DNA of 24,290 nt from Oligoflexales bacterium. Lineage in GTDB: Bacteria > Bdellovibrionota_B > Oligoflexia > Oligoflexales > Bog-1112. Under the pieces are notes generated by a model. It worked only from the letters and a program-made list of their open reading frames with translations, searched no databases and had not been told where the DNA came from. Where the stretch lies: NCBI GenBank assembly GCA_045105515.1, contig JBGCDR010000188.1, positions 1 through 24,290 on the forward strand, written 5' to 3'. A program made the position numbers and the translations under genes. This document shows, in pieces, positions 734-14,099 of this stretch. Every line of letters begins with the position of its first letter. The stretch's first letter is position 1.

Positions 734-3019
734 ATGCCTCCCCACATCTTCAAGCTGCCCTTAAATATTCGTCTTTTTGGTTTTTGGCTTCTGTGCTTTG
801 CAATTTGCACGCAGTCATTTGCCAATGAACATATGGATCCTGTCTCAATTTTTTCCGAGGAACTCCAATCAAATTCCGATGGTATTATTCCTGAGCTCGA
901 ACCCTTGGATTTAAGCCATGATCAACTTGATGGACTTAATATTTGGTTGAGCGAAGCCATAGATCTCAACATTTTTAATTTGGGTTTAGATATTAAGTCT
1001 AAGCGTTCAGCTAAACTTGAAACCGAAGACTATGTCAAGAAACTCAATGAGGAATTTAGCTTGAAGCTCTTTGGGCATCAGCTTGCTGGGATATCCCTTT
1101 TGATGGACCATCAGGAGACTCTCCTTGCCGACGACATGGGGCTTGGAAAAACGGTTCAAGCAATATACGCTTGCATGTTTGATAAAAATATTAAGAACGT
1201 GGTCGTTATGGTCCCACCGAGTTTAACTGAGCAGTGGGTAAGAAAAATAAATGAATGGGTTGGTAAGCTTTCTCCCGACTTTAAAGCTAGCGTCTTTAAC
1301 CGTGAGCTCTCGAAAACGGGAAGCTACTTTGCAGAACATTTGCAAGTGAGTGGTTCGCTCCAAAAAAATGCAAATGAAGCAAATGGGCTTAACGACTATA
1401 CCGAGGATATTGTTGCTGGAGCTGTCAACTTTTATTTTATAAGCGCTAACTGGCTGAGCACTGGTATTGATCGTGTTGAAAAAGCCCAAGATATTCTTAA
1501 GCTTTTTCTGAATATAGCTTCTATAGATGCCCTAATTGTTGATGAAGTACACAAGTATTCTACTGGCACTGCAATCAAGAAAGTACTTGGTAATGTCTTT
1601 GGTCTGTCCGGCAAACTTCCCGACTCAGCTGGTAGATTTGAATCACTGCGTAAAAAAATTGATAATATGAAGGTTATCTTATTAAGTGGGACTCCAATAC
1701 GTAACAGTGTCGCTAAAGAACTATCTTACCTTGGAGAGCTGCTACAAGTAAAAGATGCACCCTTGCTAAGATCAAAAAAACGTAAGCGAATTTCTTTAAG
1801 TGGTGATCCTTTTAAGATTGAAAATGAGCAAGAGGTAAGGGATGCCATTTTGCTAAAAATTGTACGGCGCACCAAGCTTGGTCTCATAGCAGATCAGGCA
1901 ACCCGCCTTCACTTACCTCCGATAAGCTACGAAGATGTGTCAGTAAATATGGATGTTATTTCCCACAATAAATATGAAACCCTACGAAAGGCCACTAGAC
2001 TTTTTGCCCAAGATAGAGAAAGATCTTTAAGTCTGAACTTAACACAGATTTTACGACAAATTGCCGTTAGCTATGATTTCGTGAAGCAAGAAACAAAAAA
2101 CAAGCTTGGGAACAAAGTGGATACACAATGGACTGGTAAGCAATTAAATCAGATCCTCAAAGAGATTGGAAGTGGCTTCGGTATTGACATTGACCTAGAA
2201 GGAAACATTCATTATGAGTGCCCTGTATGCTTAAGTGAGCAAGTTACGAATTCTAAAGCGGAAGGCACATCGCCAACGAAGCAGATAATTGATTCGGCCC
2301 CCGATAATTTACTCTACTTGCCATGTGGTCACTACCATTGTCGTGATTGCACGGCAAAACTAAGACAATCTATCACCCCTAGATGCTCCATTTGTAAGAC
2401 AGCAATTCCCAGTCAAAAAACACTCTTATCAGCCCGAGAGTACAAAGAGCTTTTGAATCAACGCCTAACCATTCCTGAGGATAAATCTGCTGGGCATATT
2501 CCACCAAAATTTGAACAAGTTTTAGCTTATCTTCAAGAGACAGATGAAGATAAGGTTTTACTCTTTTCAGAATTTAAACGACCTATCCATGCGTTAAAAC
2601 AATTTCTTGAAGAAAATGGAATAGCGGCTATGTTAGTGGACAACAACCTAGGTGATCCGAAGCAGCAAATTGCTTTATTTGAGAGAGACTCCTCCAAAAA
2701 AATCTGCCTACTTACTTTTGGTTATGCAGAGGGCCATAATATTTCTTCCGCAAATCATGTTATTTTTCTTACGCCTCCCTTGTCGGCTCATGTCTATTCT
2801 CAAGCTGTGGATCGGGTCTATAGATTAGGACAGAAAAAACCGGTCAGTATTATCAATTTAATAGCAGAAAATACCATTGATAGTATCGTTTACGATAGAC
2901 TCCGCCAAAATATAAAAACGATTGAAGATTTTTACTCTCTTGAAGTAGAGGTAACTGATCAAACCTTCGAGGAGGCAAATCAGCAAGTAAGAACAAGTGT
3001 AGGTGAGCTAGTAAGATAA
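734..3019 (+). CDS. SNF2-family ATPase with inserted C3HC4 RING finger (Rad5/Rad16/HLTF-like architecture) and predicted N-terminal signal peptide
   Basis: Motifs: Q (LFGHQLAG), I (LLADDMGLGKT), Ia (VPPSLTEQW), II (DEVH), III (SGTPIRN), IVRRTK, RING CPVC-x31-CGHYHCRDC-x11-CSIC (2219-2395), KVLLFSEF, V-like (YAEGHNISSANHVIF), VI (QAVDRVYRLGQ). ATG 734 follows GAAAGG (721-726); the ORF track starts at TTG 686. N-terminus IRLFGFWLLCFAICTQSFA|NE is signal-peptide-like. Confidence 0.9.
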   Translation: MPPHIFKLPLNIRLFGFWLLCFAICTQSFANEHMDPVSIFSEELQSNSDGIIPELEPLDLSHDQLDGLNIWLSEAIDLNIFNLGLDIKSKRSAKLETEDYVKKLNEEFSLKLFGHQLAGISLLMDHQETLLADDMGLGKTVQAIYACMFDKNIKNVVVMVPPSLTEQWVRKINEWVGKLSPDFKASVFNRELSKTGSYFAEHLQVSGSLQKNANEANGLNDYTEDIVAGAVNFYFISANWLSTGIDRVEKAQDILKLFLNIASIDALIVDEVHKYSTGTAIKKVLGNVFGLSGKLPDSAGRFESLRKKIDNMKVILLSGTPIRNSVAKELSYLGELLQVKDAPLLRSKKRKRISLSGDPFKIENEQEVRDAILLKIVRRTKLGLIADQATRLHLPPISYEDVSVNMDVISHNKYETLRKATRLFAQDRERSLSLNLTQILRQIAVSYDFVKQETKNKLGNKVDTQWTGKQLNQILKEIGSGFGIDIDLEGNIHYECPVCLSEQVTNSKAEGTSPTKQIIDSAPDNLLYLPCGHYHCRDCTAKLRQSITPRCSICKTAIPSQKTLLSAREYKELLNQRLTIPEDKSAGHIPPKFEQVLAYLQETDEDKVLLFSEFKRPIHALKQFLEENGIAAMLVDNNLGDPKQQIALFERDSSKKICLLTFGYAEGHNISSANHVIFLTPPLSAHVYSQAVDRVYRLGQKKPVSIINLIAENTIDSIVYDRLRQNIKTIEDFYSLEVEVTDQTFEEANQQVRTSVGELVR

Positions 3020-3035
3020 GCAAATCGTAGTTCAC

Positions 3036-3055
3036 AAATACCAAAGGCGGTATTT
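3036..3055 (+). terminator. Weak hairpin between convergent genes, possible terminator
   Basis: AAATACC-AAAGGC-GGTATTT, 16 nt after the SNF2 stop codon; the stem is AT-rich. Confidence 0.3.
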
Positions 3056-3172
3056 ATGCGTTTACAACTGCGAATTTTTTACTATCAAGTTGACTAATCC
3101 AGCAATAGTTCAGATTCATTCCAATTACGTAAAGGATGGTTATAATCGGAGTTCTCAATGTGCCTCGCTTTT

Positions 3173-12533: not shown

Positions 12534-13060
12534 GATGCTTCCTTAGCAAACTAGCAAATTTCCGCCACTATCATATGCTTTTAGCATATCTATGGGGGGC
12601 CTAATAGATTTTTAAAACAGTTTAATAAACTTTTCAATGTATTTAAACAAGAATTCCATCATCATGACCAGCATTTCCCTTGCTTCACCTCGTAGCTTTA
12701 CTCTTAAAGATGACAATAAAATATGAGCACATGAAGCCTACAATGAATAGATTCAAGAGAAGTCTGATAAACTGAAAGAAACGAAAAAAAAGAAACCTAA
12801 ATTATCCTAACTGTAGCCATATGAACTGAACTCCAGAAAGCCCCGCAGGAAGTGGTCAACAGGCCTAATAATAAGGGGGCAAGCATTTTTTATTTTCCTC
12901 CAATTAAGTTAAGCAAAGTCTATATTTTAAAAATGGAGAAGATTAAATGCAAAAGATTAGTAAAAATGGTAAAAGTGATTGATTATTATTTTGAGGAAAT
13001 TTTGAGGGTGGCGATGATTCTTAAAACTAGAGTTCCATAACCATAAGGCATGGAGTAAAT

Positions 13061-13081
13061 TAGGGGGCAATAAACCCCCTA
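13061..13081. other. Perfect 7-bp intergenic hairpin
   Basis: TAGGGGG-CAATAAA-CCCCCTA; no clear U-tract on either strand, so function unassigned. Confidence 0.4.
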
Positions 13082-13355
13082 GAAAATAGCAAAACCAAAG
13101 TCAAAACTCAACAATCATAAACATGTGCTTGTTCGTAGATTTTGCTAAAGAACTATCCTTTTGTTAGGGAGTTCGATTTTTTCCTGAGGCTCACTTAAAA
13201 TCAAAGCATTATTTTTCATAAATTTGTTTGTCATTTTGTAATGATAACTTCTTTTTGAATTATTCTTAGCACATTACTTCCTTGACAAATATAATATCCT
13301 CAATATCCTAGTTAAACCATACATTTCGAACAATCGTAATGAACACGGAAAAAAT

Positions 13356-14099
13356 ATGAAAATCAAATCAATTACTTTGTTTTTAAATCTAATGGTTCTA
13401 GGATCATTCAGTTTTTACTATGGAAGTGGTAAATCTGAAGCGACGCAACAGGAAAATGTTTTTTTTGATAATTTGGATATTAATTATTGTACTAATCCAG
13501 AAGAAGAATGGCCTGATGATGATCAAGATTACGAACTCACTTTTTTTCCTCGCCCGATAACGAATACTTCCCGTAGCCAAACCCAATGGCAACGAGAGCC
13601 TTCTCAATATGAACTCGATGAATTGTGCACTAATCGTCAACGCCAAGCTCTTCAAACCTGGTATAAAAGATTTTATGAACTGATTGAATACTGTGAGGTT
13701 AAAGGGGACTGTAATGTACCACAAAAATACAAGAACAACCCAGTGCTTGGCATATGGGTGAACAAGCAACGAATGGAAAAGAAGTACATGGATGAAGGAA
13801 AAAGATCTTCCATGACGCGAAAAAAGGTTCAAAAATTGGAAAACATTGGATTCCAATGGGGACAACGAAAGGGTCAACATCGATGGTCCATAAGATACAT
13901 TGAGCTCCGTGCGTATCATGAGCAGTTTGGTGATTGCGAGGTTCCCACAAAATACATAAAAAATCTAGCTCTAGGGCGATGGGTGAGCACACAAAGATCA
14001 GAATACAAAAAGTTTCCCAGTGGCCATTCCAAACAGATGACCCAAAAAAGAATAGACCTACTCAATGCCCTTGGGTTCAAGTGGGTAGCGTCTAAGTGA
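13356..14099 (+). CDS. Protein with two tandem helicase-associated (HA, PF03457-type) domains, no helicase core, and an N-terminal signal peptide
   Basis: Two copies of W..R(F/Y).EL..Y....GDC.VP.KY..N..LG.WV..QR.......MT.K....L...GF.W (about 13659-14087). N-terminus MKIKSITLFLNLMVLGSFSFYYGSGKSEA followed by an acidic linker. Confidence 0.9.
   Translation: MKIKSITLFLNLMVLGSFSFYYGSGKSEATQQENVFFDNLDINYCTNPEEEWPDDDQDYELTFFPRPITNTSRSQTQWQREPSQYELDELCTNRQRQALQTWYKRFYELIEYCEVKGDCNVPQKYKNNPVLGIWVNKQRMEKKYMDEGKRSSMTRKKVQKLENIGFQWGQRKGQHRWSIRYIELRAYHEQFGDCEVPTKYIKNLALGRWVSTQRSEYKKFPSGHSKQMTQKRIDLLNALGFKWVASK

Follow-up and report, generated by a model that had tools for sequence, protein, structure and literature searches.

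Intracellular bacteria are known for eukaryotic-like effectors such as U-box, F-box, SET and ankyrin proteins, and the classical members of this group are injected through type IV or type III systems and have no Sec leader. Phytoplasma SAP11 and its relatives are signal-peptide effectors that are released into the host cytoplasm, some of them with nuclear localisation signals; phytoplasmas have a single membrane, so that Sec alone suffices, and these effectors are small and non-enzymatic. Substrates of the Legionella pneumophila type II secretion system (T2SS), for example ProA, carry a Sec leader, leave by the T2SS, act in the host cell and get to the host cytosol, as excerpts of PMC5478897 describe; the substrates it names are degradative, such as the metalloprotease ProA, and work without ATP, S-adenosylmethionine (SAM) or ubiquitin machinery. 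The Legionella LegK kinases (PMC4588518, in excerpt) represent horizontally acquired eukaryotic-like effectors with eukaryotic-type domains. We analysed a stretch of 24,290 nucleotides (the window), which is one whole contig (C188) of G000, a 6.29-Mb, 461-contig genome bin of an uncultured Oligoflexales bacterium with 38% GC. A first-pass annotation had claimed that three unrelated genes of the window, encoding an SNF2-RING protein, a tandem SAM methyltransferase and an HA-repeat protein, share the layout of a signal peptide, an acidic spacer and a domain. We found the three open reading frames (ORFs) and their N-termini as it had reported them (Table 1).

Our data suggest that the three genes probably belong to a genome-wide set of candidate effectors that would be exported by Sec and the T2SS, for use in a eukaryotic, probably algal, host or prey. 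The proposed path is that of the Legionella T2SS substrates, but the cargo is of nuclear or cytosolic type. The cargo also differs from that of phytoplasmas in that it includes enzymes and would need a second export step. Kinases, ankyrins and RING-type ligases occur in this genome as they do among classical eukaryotic-like effectors, whereas the common feature here is a leader. Eukaryote-like effectors are known, and so are Sec/T2SS substrates that reach the host cytosol. New is their combination in an Oligoflexales genome, with a leader-bearing SNF2-RING family and apparently alga-derived cargo; in the open-access literature searched, which describes ecology and microscopy, we found no paper on Oligoflexales effectors.

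Leaders and cargo of the three proteins

We called leaders with our own heuristic, which looks for a positive n-region, an uncharged hydrophobic core and small residues at −3/−1, in keeping with the criteria for Sec-type signal peptides (positively charged n-region, hydrophobic core of 7-15 residues, small uncharged residues at −3/−1). It was run on 5278 crude gene models of the genome, of which it flagged 1355, 1120 of these without a later membrane helix. Half of the gene models on C188 (9 of 18) were flagged as leader-bearing. Leaders are thus common in the genome; the unusual point is the cargo and not the leader. As a control we used 49 ABC-ATPase models; one received a weak flag, with a later hydrophobic stretch, and none was called a signal peptide without later membrane helix. 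All three window genes were flagged, the HA gene most weakly.

The leaders recurred in relatives of the proteins. The SNF2-RING relatives P0003 (68% identity) and P0270, an N-terminal fragment, were flagged as well. P0004 and P0005 (32%) begin, by eye, with MKK, a 17-residue hydrophobic run and ALA/A (the slash marks the predicted cleavage site); the heuristic misses both, solely because it rejects stretches of more than 24 uncharged residues. P0002, which is 80% identical, is cut off by the end of its own contig. The HA orthologue P0143 (59%) has the leader nearly residue for residue, at 0.03 units below the hydrophobicity threshold of the heuristic.

Alternative start sites gave no sign of leaderless versions. 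Met34 of the SNF2-RING protein and Met13 of the HA protein are not conserved in orthologues, although a database gene call (P0142) begins the HA protein at Met13. The start codons 5' of the conserved methyltransferase domain are ATG 4867 and the TTG codons 4, 8 and 9, all of them at or within the leader, so that a leaderless version is not possible. AGGGA lies 5 nt upstream of ATG 4867, and GAAAGG lies upstream of the SNF2-RING ATG at 734. The first-pass annotation had named missing signal peptides or true starts downstream of them as findings that would count against it; the heuristic and the comparisons of orthologues and start codons revealed neither. These results support, circumstantially, that the putative leaders of the three proteins are genuine and conserved, with the methyltransferase as a singleton.

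The SNF2-RING protein matched the Pfam models SNF2-rel_dom (62.6 bits, cut-off 24.9) and Helicase_C (45.2 bits, cut-off 23.5), with both lobes, Walker A, DExH and motif VI of an SNF2 ATPase intact. At residues 496-554 we observed C-x2-C-x31-C-x-H-x2-C-x2-C-x11-C-x2-C, which provides eight Zn ligands in canonical C3HC4 spacing. The best RING model, zf-C3HC4_3, scored 25.6 bits against a Pfam cut-off of 27; other RING models were also below their cut-offs. In the genome search PF13639 gave 22.9 bits. The RING lies between the SNF2-rel_dom match and Helicase_C (608-715), as in Rad5/HLTF. ATPases of the Rad5/Rad16/HLTF/SHPRH type and giant-virus SNF2-RING proteins likewise carry a RING between the lobes and intact ATPase motifs; the window protein differs from them by its signal peptide, by the lack of a HIRAN match and by its tiny family of its own. 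HIRAN (PF08797) had no Pfam match at E <= 0.01 in the protein, and despite the similar layout we did not file it as a Rad5/HLTF member. The fungal matches P0024 and P0051 carry PF08797. A KKRKR cluster, which we take to fit a nuclear localisation signal by its consensus, is present in P0001-P0003; P0004 and P0005 lack it at the same spot and have other basic clusters.

In a profile search of 1.84 billion representatives we found about ten family-level members of this SNF2-RING family before generic SNF2 helicases appeared. Five members have a leader and six do not (P0262, P0263, P0265-P0268); the N-termini of these six are acidic and F/D-rich, some with lysine-rich stretches. Fungal matches covered up to 78% of the query at 21-24% identity, and the nearest ESM Atlas clusters with SNF2 plus RING are from Nucleocytoviricota and Ascomycota. 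The architecture thus appears to be of a eukaryote or giant-virus type, like giant-virus and fungal proteins, a resemblance that we treat as a lead only. Species-representative genomes gave three weak partial matches (Fimbriimonas, Armatimonadetes and Zetaproteobacteria metagenome-assembled genomes; 26-41% on segments), which are not family members. P0270 and P0264, a C-terminal fragment, lie on the same 294,866-bp metagenome contig, and the gene of this relative may be split or frameshifted.

The tandem methyltransferase has the SAM motif-I glycines of both halves invariant relative to its algal relatives. Its C-terminal half (residues 286-563) matched NF041675 (SDMT) with 222.2 bits (E 1.2e-65, profile positions 6-277 of 278); as the curated cut-off is 550, this half is a homologue and not an equivalog. 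The protein also matched PDB entry 2o57 (5e-39). The best of its 20 non-self matches is from the red alga Porphyridium purpureum, with 46% identity over 92% of the query. Among the other full-length matches a single one has a name, an MMETSP transcript. Names among the partial matches were those of an MMETSP transcript, of a dinoflagellate entry in eukprot and, as a weak match, of a fish protein; a full-length relative named as bacterial was not among the 20. All four full-length relatives are leaderless, and the algal homologues align only from about residue 44. On sequence grounds, a putative algal small-molecule (glycine-betaine-type) N-methyltransferase describes the protein better than a nuclear enzyme does.

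TpGSDMT of the diatom Thalassiosira pseudonana converts glycine to glycine betaine in one protein, with a coding sequence of 1725 bp, in the portion of PMC12650439 cited here. By size and description rather than by sequence, the 564-residue window protein resembles it as a single polypeptide with an SDMT-like C-terminal half and algal nearest relatives; it differs in scoring below the SDMT equivalog cut-off, and in carrying a signal peptide that its own algal relatives lack. We also observed a stand-alone, leaderless SDMT-like gene (G000:C212:4854-6486, minus strand) directly beside a second methyltransferase gene. The two genes may serve glycine-betaine synthesis in the bacterium's own cytoplasm, parallel to the export-tagged algal-type enzyme.

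The HA protein scored 123.6 bits against PF03457, well above the gathering threshold of 28.4. Its AlphaFold model has a short helix at residues 6-13, followed by low-confidence residues 15-51 and all-helical HA repeats with predicted local distance difference test (pLDDT) values above 95. After the orthologue P0143, its matches are diatom proteins at 50-58% identity (Seminavis, Fistulifera, Thalassiosira, Cyclotella), with 54% identity over 180 amino acids to the Seminavis protein. We built a quick maximum-likelihood tree with IQ-TREE from BLAST matches that start by query residue 105 and reach at least residue 235 (80 rows kept, other matches dropped), with support from the Shimodaira-Hasegawa-like approximate likelihood-ratio test (SH-aLRT). 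The HA protein and P0143 grouped together (96) inside a clade with Seminavis, Fistulifera and Cyclotella (89). A signal-peptide-like N-terminus was seen in only two of the 101 HA matches that begin with Met. For the HA fold, Foldseek found nothing in the PDB at E <= 0.001 and a PDB sequence search of the protein returned 0 matches; the VIA wide search gave only 2kta, a structural-genomics domain of a Bacteroides protein (Z 7.1, root-mean-square deviation 2.9, 69 aligned), which is probably itself an HA domain, without a function attached.

The closest relatives of the methyltransferase and of the HA protein are eukaryotic, and HA proteins are rare among the bacterial kin; of 131 genomes of the phylum, two contain the window HA protein. 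The first-pass annotation had stated that closest homologues among ordinary cytoplasmic bacterial proteins would speak against it, and this is not what we observed: two of the three proteins have algal relatives, and for the SNF2-RING protein there is the lead described above. The data circumstantially support algae as the probable closest relatives of these two cargo domains.

One alternative is that the hydrophobic N-termini are membrane anchors or prediction artefacts and that the domains act in the bacterium's own cytoplasm, in DNA repair and betaine synthesis. It draws on the facts that the leaders were called by a home-made heuristic alone, that the HA leader is weak and is bypassed by the database call at Met13, and that the genome uses SDMT-type chemistry in its leaderless gene pair. 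Under the positive-inside rule, basic residues before a hydrophobic core and acidic residues after it lead to an N-in/C-out topology. Each of the three cores has K/R before it and a strongly acidic stretch after it, which fits this topology. Moreover, the leaders are kept across 32-68% identity where the alternative Met codons are not, neither the three ordinary SNF2 helicases of the genome nor its SDMT-like gene has such an N-terminus, and none of the 49 ABC ATPases was called soluble and exported. We therefore consider anchors or artefacts unlikely.

Table 1. Features of the window and of the genome bin (a slash marks the predicted cleavage site)
Feature	Position or contig	Strand	Basis and remarks
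Signal-peptide SNF2-RING gene, 761 aa	734..3019	+	ORF; Pfam SNF2-rel_dom, Helicase_C, RING models; small family
Signal-peptide codons, 30 aa, ...QSFA/NEH	734..823	+	Heuristic; conserved in P0003
Acidic F/L/D-rich region, leader to ATPase core (end approximate)	824..1060	+	Net +10 over 40 aa
Walker A (GLGKT) of SNF2 ATPase	1139..1153	+	Invariant in 5-sequence alignment
DEVH	1541-1552	+	Invariant in 5-sequence alignment
SGTP	1685-1696	+	Invariant in 5-sequence alignment
KKRKR basic cluster, NLS-like (nuclear localisation signal)	1775..1789	+	Position
C3HC4 RING between helicase lobes	2219..2395	+	Pattern; 8 ligands invariant in 5-sequence alignment
QAVDR	2801-2815	+	Invariant in 5-sequence alignment
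Signal-peptide tandem SAM methyltransferase gene, 564 aa	3173..4867	-	ORF; two class-I methyltransferase domains (Pfam)
Signal-peptide codons, 23 aa, ...VLSA/SDS; acidic S/D-rich spacer to about residue 43	4799..4867	-	Heuristic
Signal-peptide gene with two HA repeats, 247 aa	13356..14099	+	ORF; Pfam HA 123.6 bits
Leader codons, 29 aa, ...KSEA/TQQ, weakest of three	13356..13442	+	Heuristic; conserved in P0143
HA repeats 1 (13653-13853) and 2 (13875-14078)	13653..14078	+	PF03457, 59.9 and 71.2 bits
TLC/NTT paralogues	C74, C181, C166, C40, C393, C190		Six contigs

Leader-bearing proteins elsewhere in the genome

We assessed how often such fusions recur from 22 motif-selected proteins and from family-by-family searches, a sample and not a census of the 1120 leader-bearing proteins. 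The 22 proteins subjected to a Pfam scan comprised 20 with a leader, from the motif screen, and 2 leaderless controls. Nucleotide- or SAM-dependent domains were present in 10 of the 20 (Ras, two AAA, three Zeta_toxin, Pkinase, MutS_V and two methyltransferases). All three HA genes of the genome have a leader, and the heuristic flagged six of the 15 Pkinase genes and three of the seven ankyrin genes. Among four further RING-bearing gene models one was flagged, and two more have, by eye, a hydrophobic start that lacks a basic residue. U-box (PF04564) had no match in this genome or in any control genome, so that this negative carries no information. The first-pass annotation had regarded a lack of genome-wide enrichment as a point against it; such fusions recur in these targeted searches, compared to 0 of 49 among the ABC ATPases, and its expectation held to the extent that such a sample allows.

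The two other HA genes, on C41 and C282, share a 1.8-kb duplication, and both begin with a textbook leader. We ruled out that these paralogues are strain duplicates, as the alignable part is limited to 1.8 kb (89%) and their flanks are different. The HA gene of another genome of the order, G052, is leaderless. A Rab-like GTPase (G000:C88:98-1390, minus strand) has its leader directly before the domain (Pfam Ras 1.5e-31); no other gene of the genome gave a strong Ras match. Its best PDB matches are the eukaryotic Rab27A (7e-24), Rab21 and Rab1, and it ends in a tail of about 240 amino acids to which no family was assigned.

Three P-loop kinases of the Zeta_toxin family also have a leader (G000:C133:2809-3681, C451:3258-4127 and C145:16895-17749). 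Zeta toxins act on a peptidoglycan precursor, and exported kinases of this type would be better suited to attacking bacterial cell-wall precursors than to a eukaryotic target. Another gene (G000:C179:6223-7212, minus strand) encodes a leader followed by two repeats of Dermatopontin (PF14704), an animal extracellular-matrix domain. In the window itself, the genes at 8648-9610 and 10826-11497 (both plus strand) encode a leader or hydrophobic N-terminus and matched no Pfam or NCBIfam family; one product is K/E/C-rich and the other coiled-coil-like. Both could belong to the same exported set.

The first-pass annotation had further suggested that the acidic spacer after the leader may be part of a targeting signal. 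We computed spacer charge, as D+E minus K+R, from the 40 residues that follow the predicted cleavage site. Net acidity was +10 for the SNF2-RING protein, +5 for the methyltransferase and +9 for the HA protein. Across 24 proteins with a signal peptide and a cytosolic domain, only five reached at least +5, and in many of the 24 the domain begins directly after the cleavage site. Values of at least +6 over 40 residues were observed in 142 of 1120 leader-bearing proteins, including many ordinary lipoproteins, versus 194 of 3596 control segments. No 3-mer was present after the leader in at least 4 of 25 proteins, and the best gapped pair (p = 5e-4 for 808 tests) fails multiple testing. In the SNF2-RING family a comparable acidic N-terminus also occurs in the leaderless P0263 and P0265-P0268 (the profile alignment begins at position 24 in P0268), so that the acidic region there belongs to the cargo. 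Because acidic spacers are few, share no motif and reflect an acidity that is general in exported proteins, the spacer is not a common address label, and we abandoned this part of the earlier proposal. The window also contains, at 19122-21446 (minus strand), a gene for a 774-residue protein without a Pfam family, whose lipoprotein-type leader (...ISMIA/C) precedes a highly acidic stretch of E/D/T/S; it looks like an ordinary case of such post-leader acidity among the lipoproteins.

Possible secretion route, lifestyle and genomic context

A search of the genome for a T2SS, as the first-pass annotation had advised, was successful. We found a complete operon on another contig, C36, with two GspC, two GspD, GspE, F, G, J and K and a PilM/N-like protein; the Pfam matches are T2SSC (twice), T2SSE, T2SSF, T2SSG, T2SSJ and T2SSK_1st. 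The two GspD proteins scored 455 and 362.7 bits against TIGR02517 (cut-off 351.35). The operon lies at G000:C36:51012-55669 on the minus strand, with GspC and GspD each duplicated in tandem.

We next considered features of lifestyle. The genome encodes six full-length TLC/NTT (ATP/ADP-translocase-type) paralogues with 389-677 bits, a family that is present in 0 of 14 control genomes. Six copies are unusually many outside obligate intracellular bacteria, and they would point to a life in contact with a nucleotide-rich host cytoplasm. Excerpts of a preprint (bioRxiv 10.1101/2025.04.17.649447) describe FD111-like Oligoflexales that attach to, enter and replicate inside the alga Nannochloropsis. 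In the anemone Aiptasia, Oligoflexales abundance follows the density of algal symbionts, according to a part of PMC10701089. Only three runs contained the DNA of the window; they come from one study labelled 'plant metagenome', possibly its source, and none is listed as RNA.

The proteins might instead be exported for use outside any eukaryotic cytosol, as is the case for many secreted proteins of the Bdellovibrio type. They would then act on bacterial prey, in the bacterium's own periplasm, at its surface, or on targets in the medium such as released DNA. The three signal-peptide Zeta_toxin kinases would suit a bacterial target, signal peptides are very common in this genome, and the T2SS delivers to the outside only; the phylum is also known for predation on bacteria (PMC8067016, in excerpt). 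Set against this, the RING finger requires E2~ubiquitin, and the Rab-like GTPase, the diatom-type HA protein and the algal methyltransferase have no known bacterial partners. The six NTT paralogues and the ATP- and SAM-dependent cargo likewise require a nucleotide-rich compartment. A purely bacterial or extracellular use of the three proteins is improbable in our judgement.

Export could also proceed in two steps with a second step other than the T2SS, such as outer-membrane vesicles, a contractile-injection-like device, a type IV system or a remodelling of the envelope inside the host. We know of no recognisable sequence tag in T2SS substrates, and so the assignment to the T2SS is made by default. 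However, neither TssC of the type VI system nor VirB4 (PF03135), the two injection families tried, matched in this 91%-complete genome, which does encode a complete T2SS, with GspC and GspD in duplicate. We regard such a different second step as quite unlikely.

The placement of the contig was assessed from its neighbours, composition and ends. The GT2 and adenylate-cyclase genes of C188 have orthologues that are 73% and 87% identical in the same-genus genome G012. The GC content (0.39-0.40), GC3 and codon usage of the three genes are typical of the genome, and so the genes are resident and not algal contamination. Both ends of C188 are copies of a repeat of about 137 bp, and more than 40 further contig ends in the bin carry it too. 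The last bases of the window (24154-24290) are 97-100% identical to ends or interiors of more than 40 other bin contigs, and the first 137 bases (1-137) match C415. This high-copy repeat evidently breaks the assembly and is possibly the end of an insertion sequence. We searched the window for tRNA genes as a sign of a mobile element and found none. Although the bin is metagenomic, in 461 contigs with 4.8% contamination, is larger than the 15 other genomes of the family and has repeat copies at both ends of C188, a mis-binned or chimeric contig from another host-associated organism, to which the genome-wide context would not apply, is very improbable, as two of the contig's genes have close orthologues in G012, its GC content and codon usage agree with the bin, the terminal repeat links it to many other bin contigs, and the same type of fusion occurs on more than 20 contigs besides C188.

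Several observations weigh against Sec/T2SS export of the three proteins into an algal host. The T2SS releases proteins outside the bacterium and not across a host membrane, and the search for injection systems covered two families. The home-made predictor misses P0004, P0005 and P0143, and the leader of the HA protein is a weak one. No relative shares the methyltransferase fusion, so that conservation lends its leader no support. A eukaryotic or viral origin of the SNF2-RING gene is a lead, as its relatives carry no taxon names. This gene was found in 1 of 95 genomes of the order (E <= 1e-30), HA proteins over the cut-off were found in 3 of 95, and the same-genus G012 contains neither. The three genes are thus rare and accessory, and not core to the lifestyle of the lineage. 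At a completeness of 90.9% and a contamination of 4.8%, G000 (6.29 Mb) exceeds all 15 other genomes of the family (1.8-4.6 Mb), which reflects either true growth by accessory genes or some co-binning. The ecological link consists of order-level kinship with the FD111-like bacteria and the 'plant metagenome' label, and an algal host would be suggested by these.

Delivery into a eukaryotic host by a two-step Sec route, as the first-pass annotation had proposed, is circumstantially supported by the leaders, the algal-type cargo, the recurrence of such fusions and the T2SS. From these we infer export itself, the T2SS route, the identity of the host, entry into its cytosol or nucleus, and all targets.

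Proposed mechanism and its meaning for Oligoflexales

The data would be consistent with the following sequence of events. Two of the genes, for the diatom-type HA protein and the red-alga-type tandem N-methyltransferase, may have been captured from algae, and the SNF2-RING gene from a eukaryote or giant virus. The captured genes would then have been fitted to the composition of the genome and have gained N-terminal Sec signal peptides. Sec would carry their products across the inner membrane; with the leader removed, they would exit by the T2SS encoded on the other contig. If the bacterium is inside or tightly on a host cell, as is reported of other members of the order, the proteins would meet ATP, SAM, DNA and E2~ubiquitin. 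There, host chromatin or repair factors could be targets of the SNF2-RING protein, in the role of an E3 ligase and a DNA-dependent ATPase. The HA protein could be a mimic of the host's own HA proteins, and the methyltransferase may methylate a small amine such as glycine with host SAM.

A broader scenario is possible, and we put it forward tentatively, as one that is rather less than probable. A branch of a phylum of predators may have switched to eukaryotic algae by copying genes of its victims and of giant viruses, fitting them with plain Sec leaders and releasing the products by the T2SS straight into the host cytoplasm, with no injection machine. A secreted Rab mimic would then be part of the set, together with the first chromatin-type ATPase/E3 ligase of SNF2-RING architecture to be secreted.

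The molecular side of how Oligoflexales kill or live with microalgae is barely understood. The analysis provides a concrete list of candidates, all of them export-tagged: the SNF2-RING protein, the HA proteins, the Rab-like GTPase, kinases, AAA ATPases and the algal methyltransferase. It also suggests an evolutionary recipe of host gene plus Sec leader, which, together with a T2SS and intracellular life, could replace dedicated injection systems. If true, this would bear on the biology of algal blooms and culture crashes and on the move of predators from bacterial to eukaryotic prey. It would also bear on why host-dependent bacteria put export tags on ATP-dependent enzymes.

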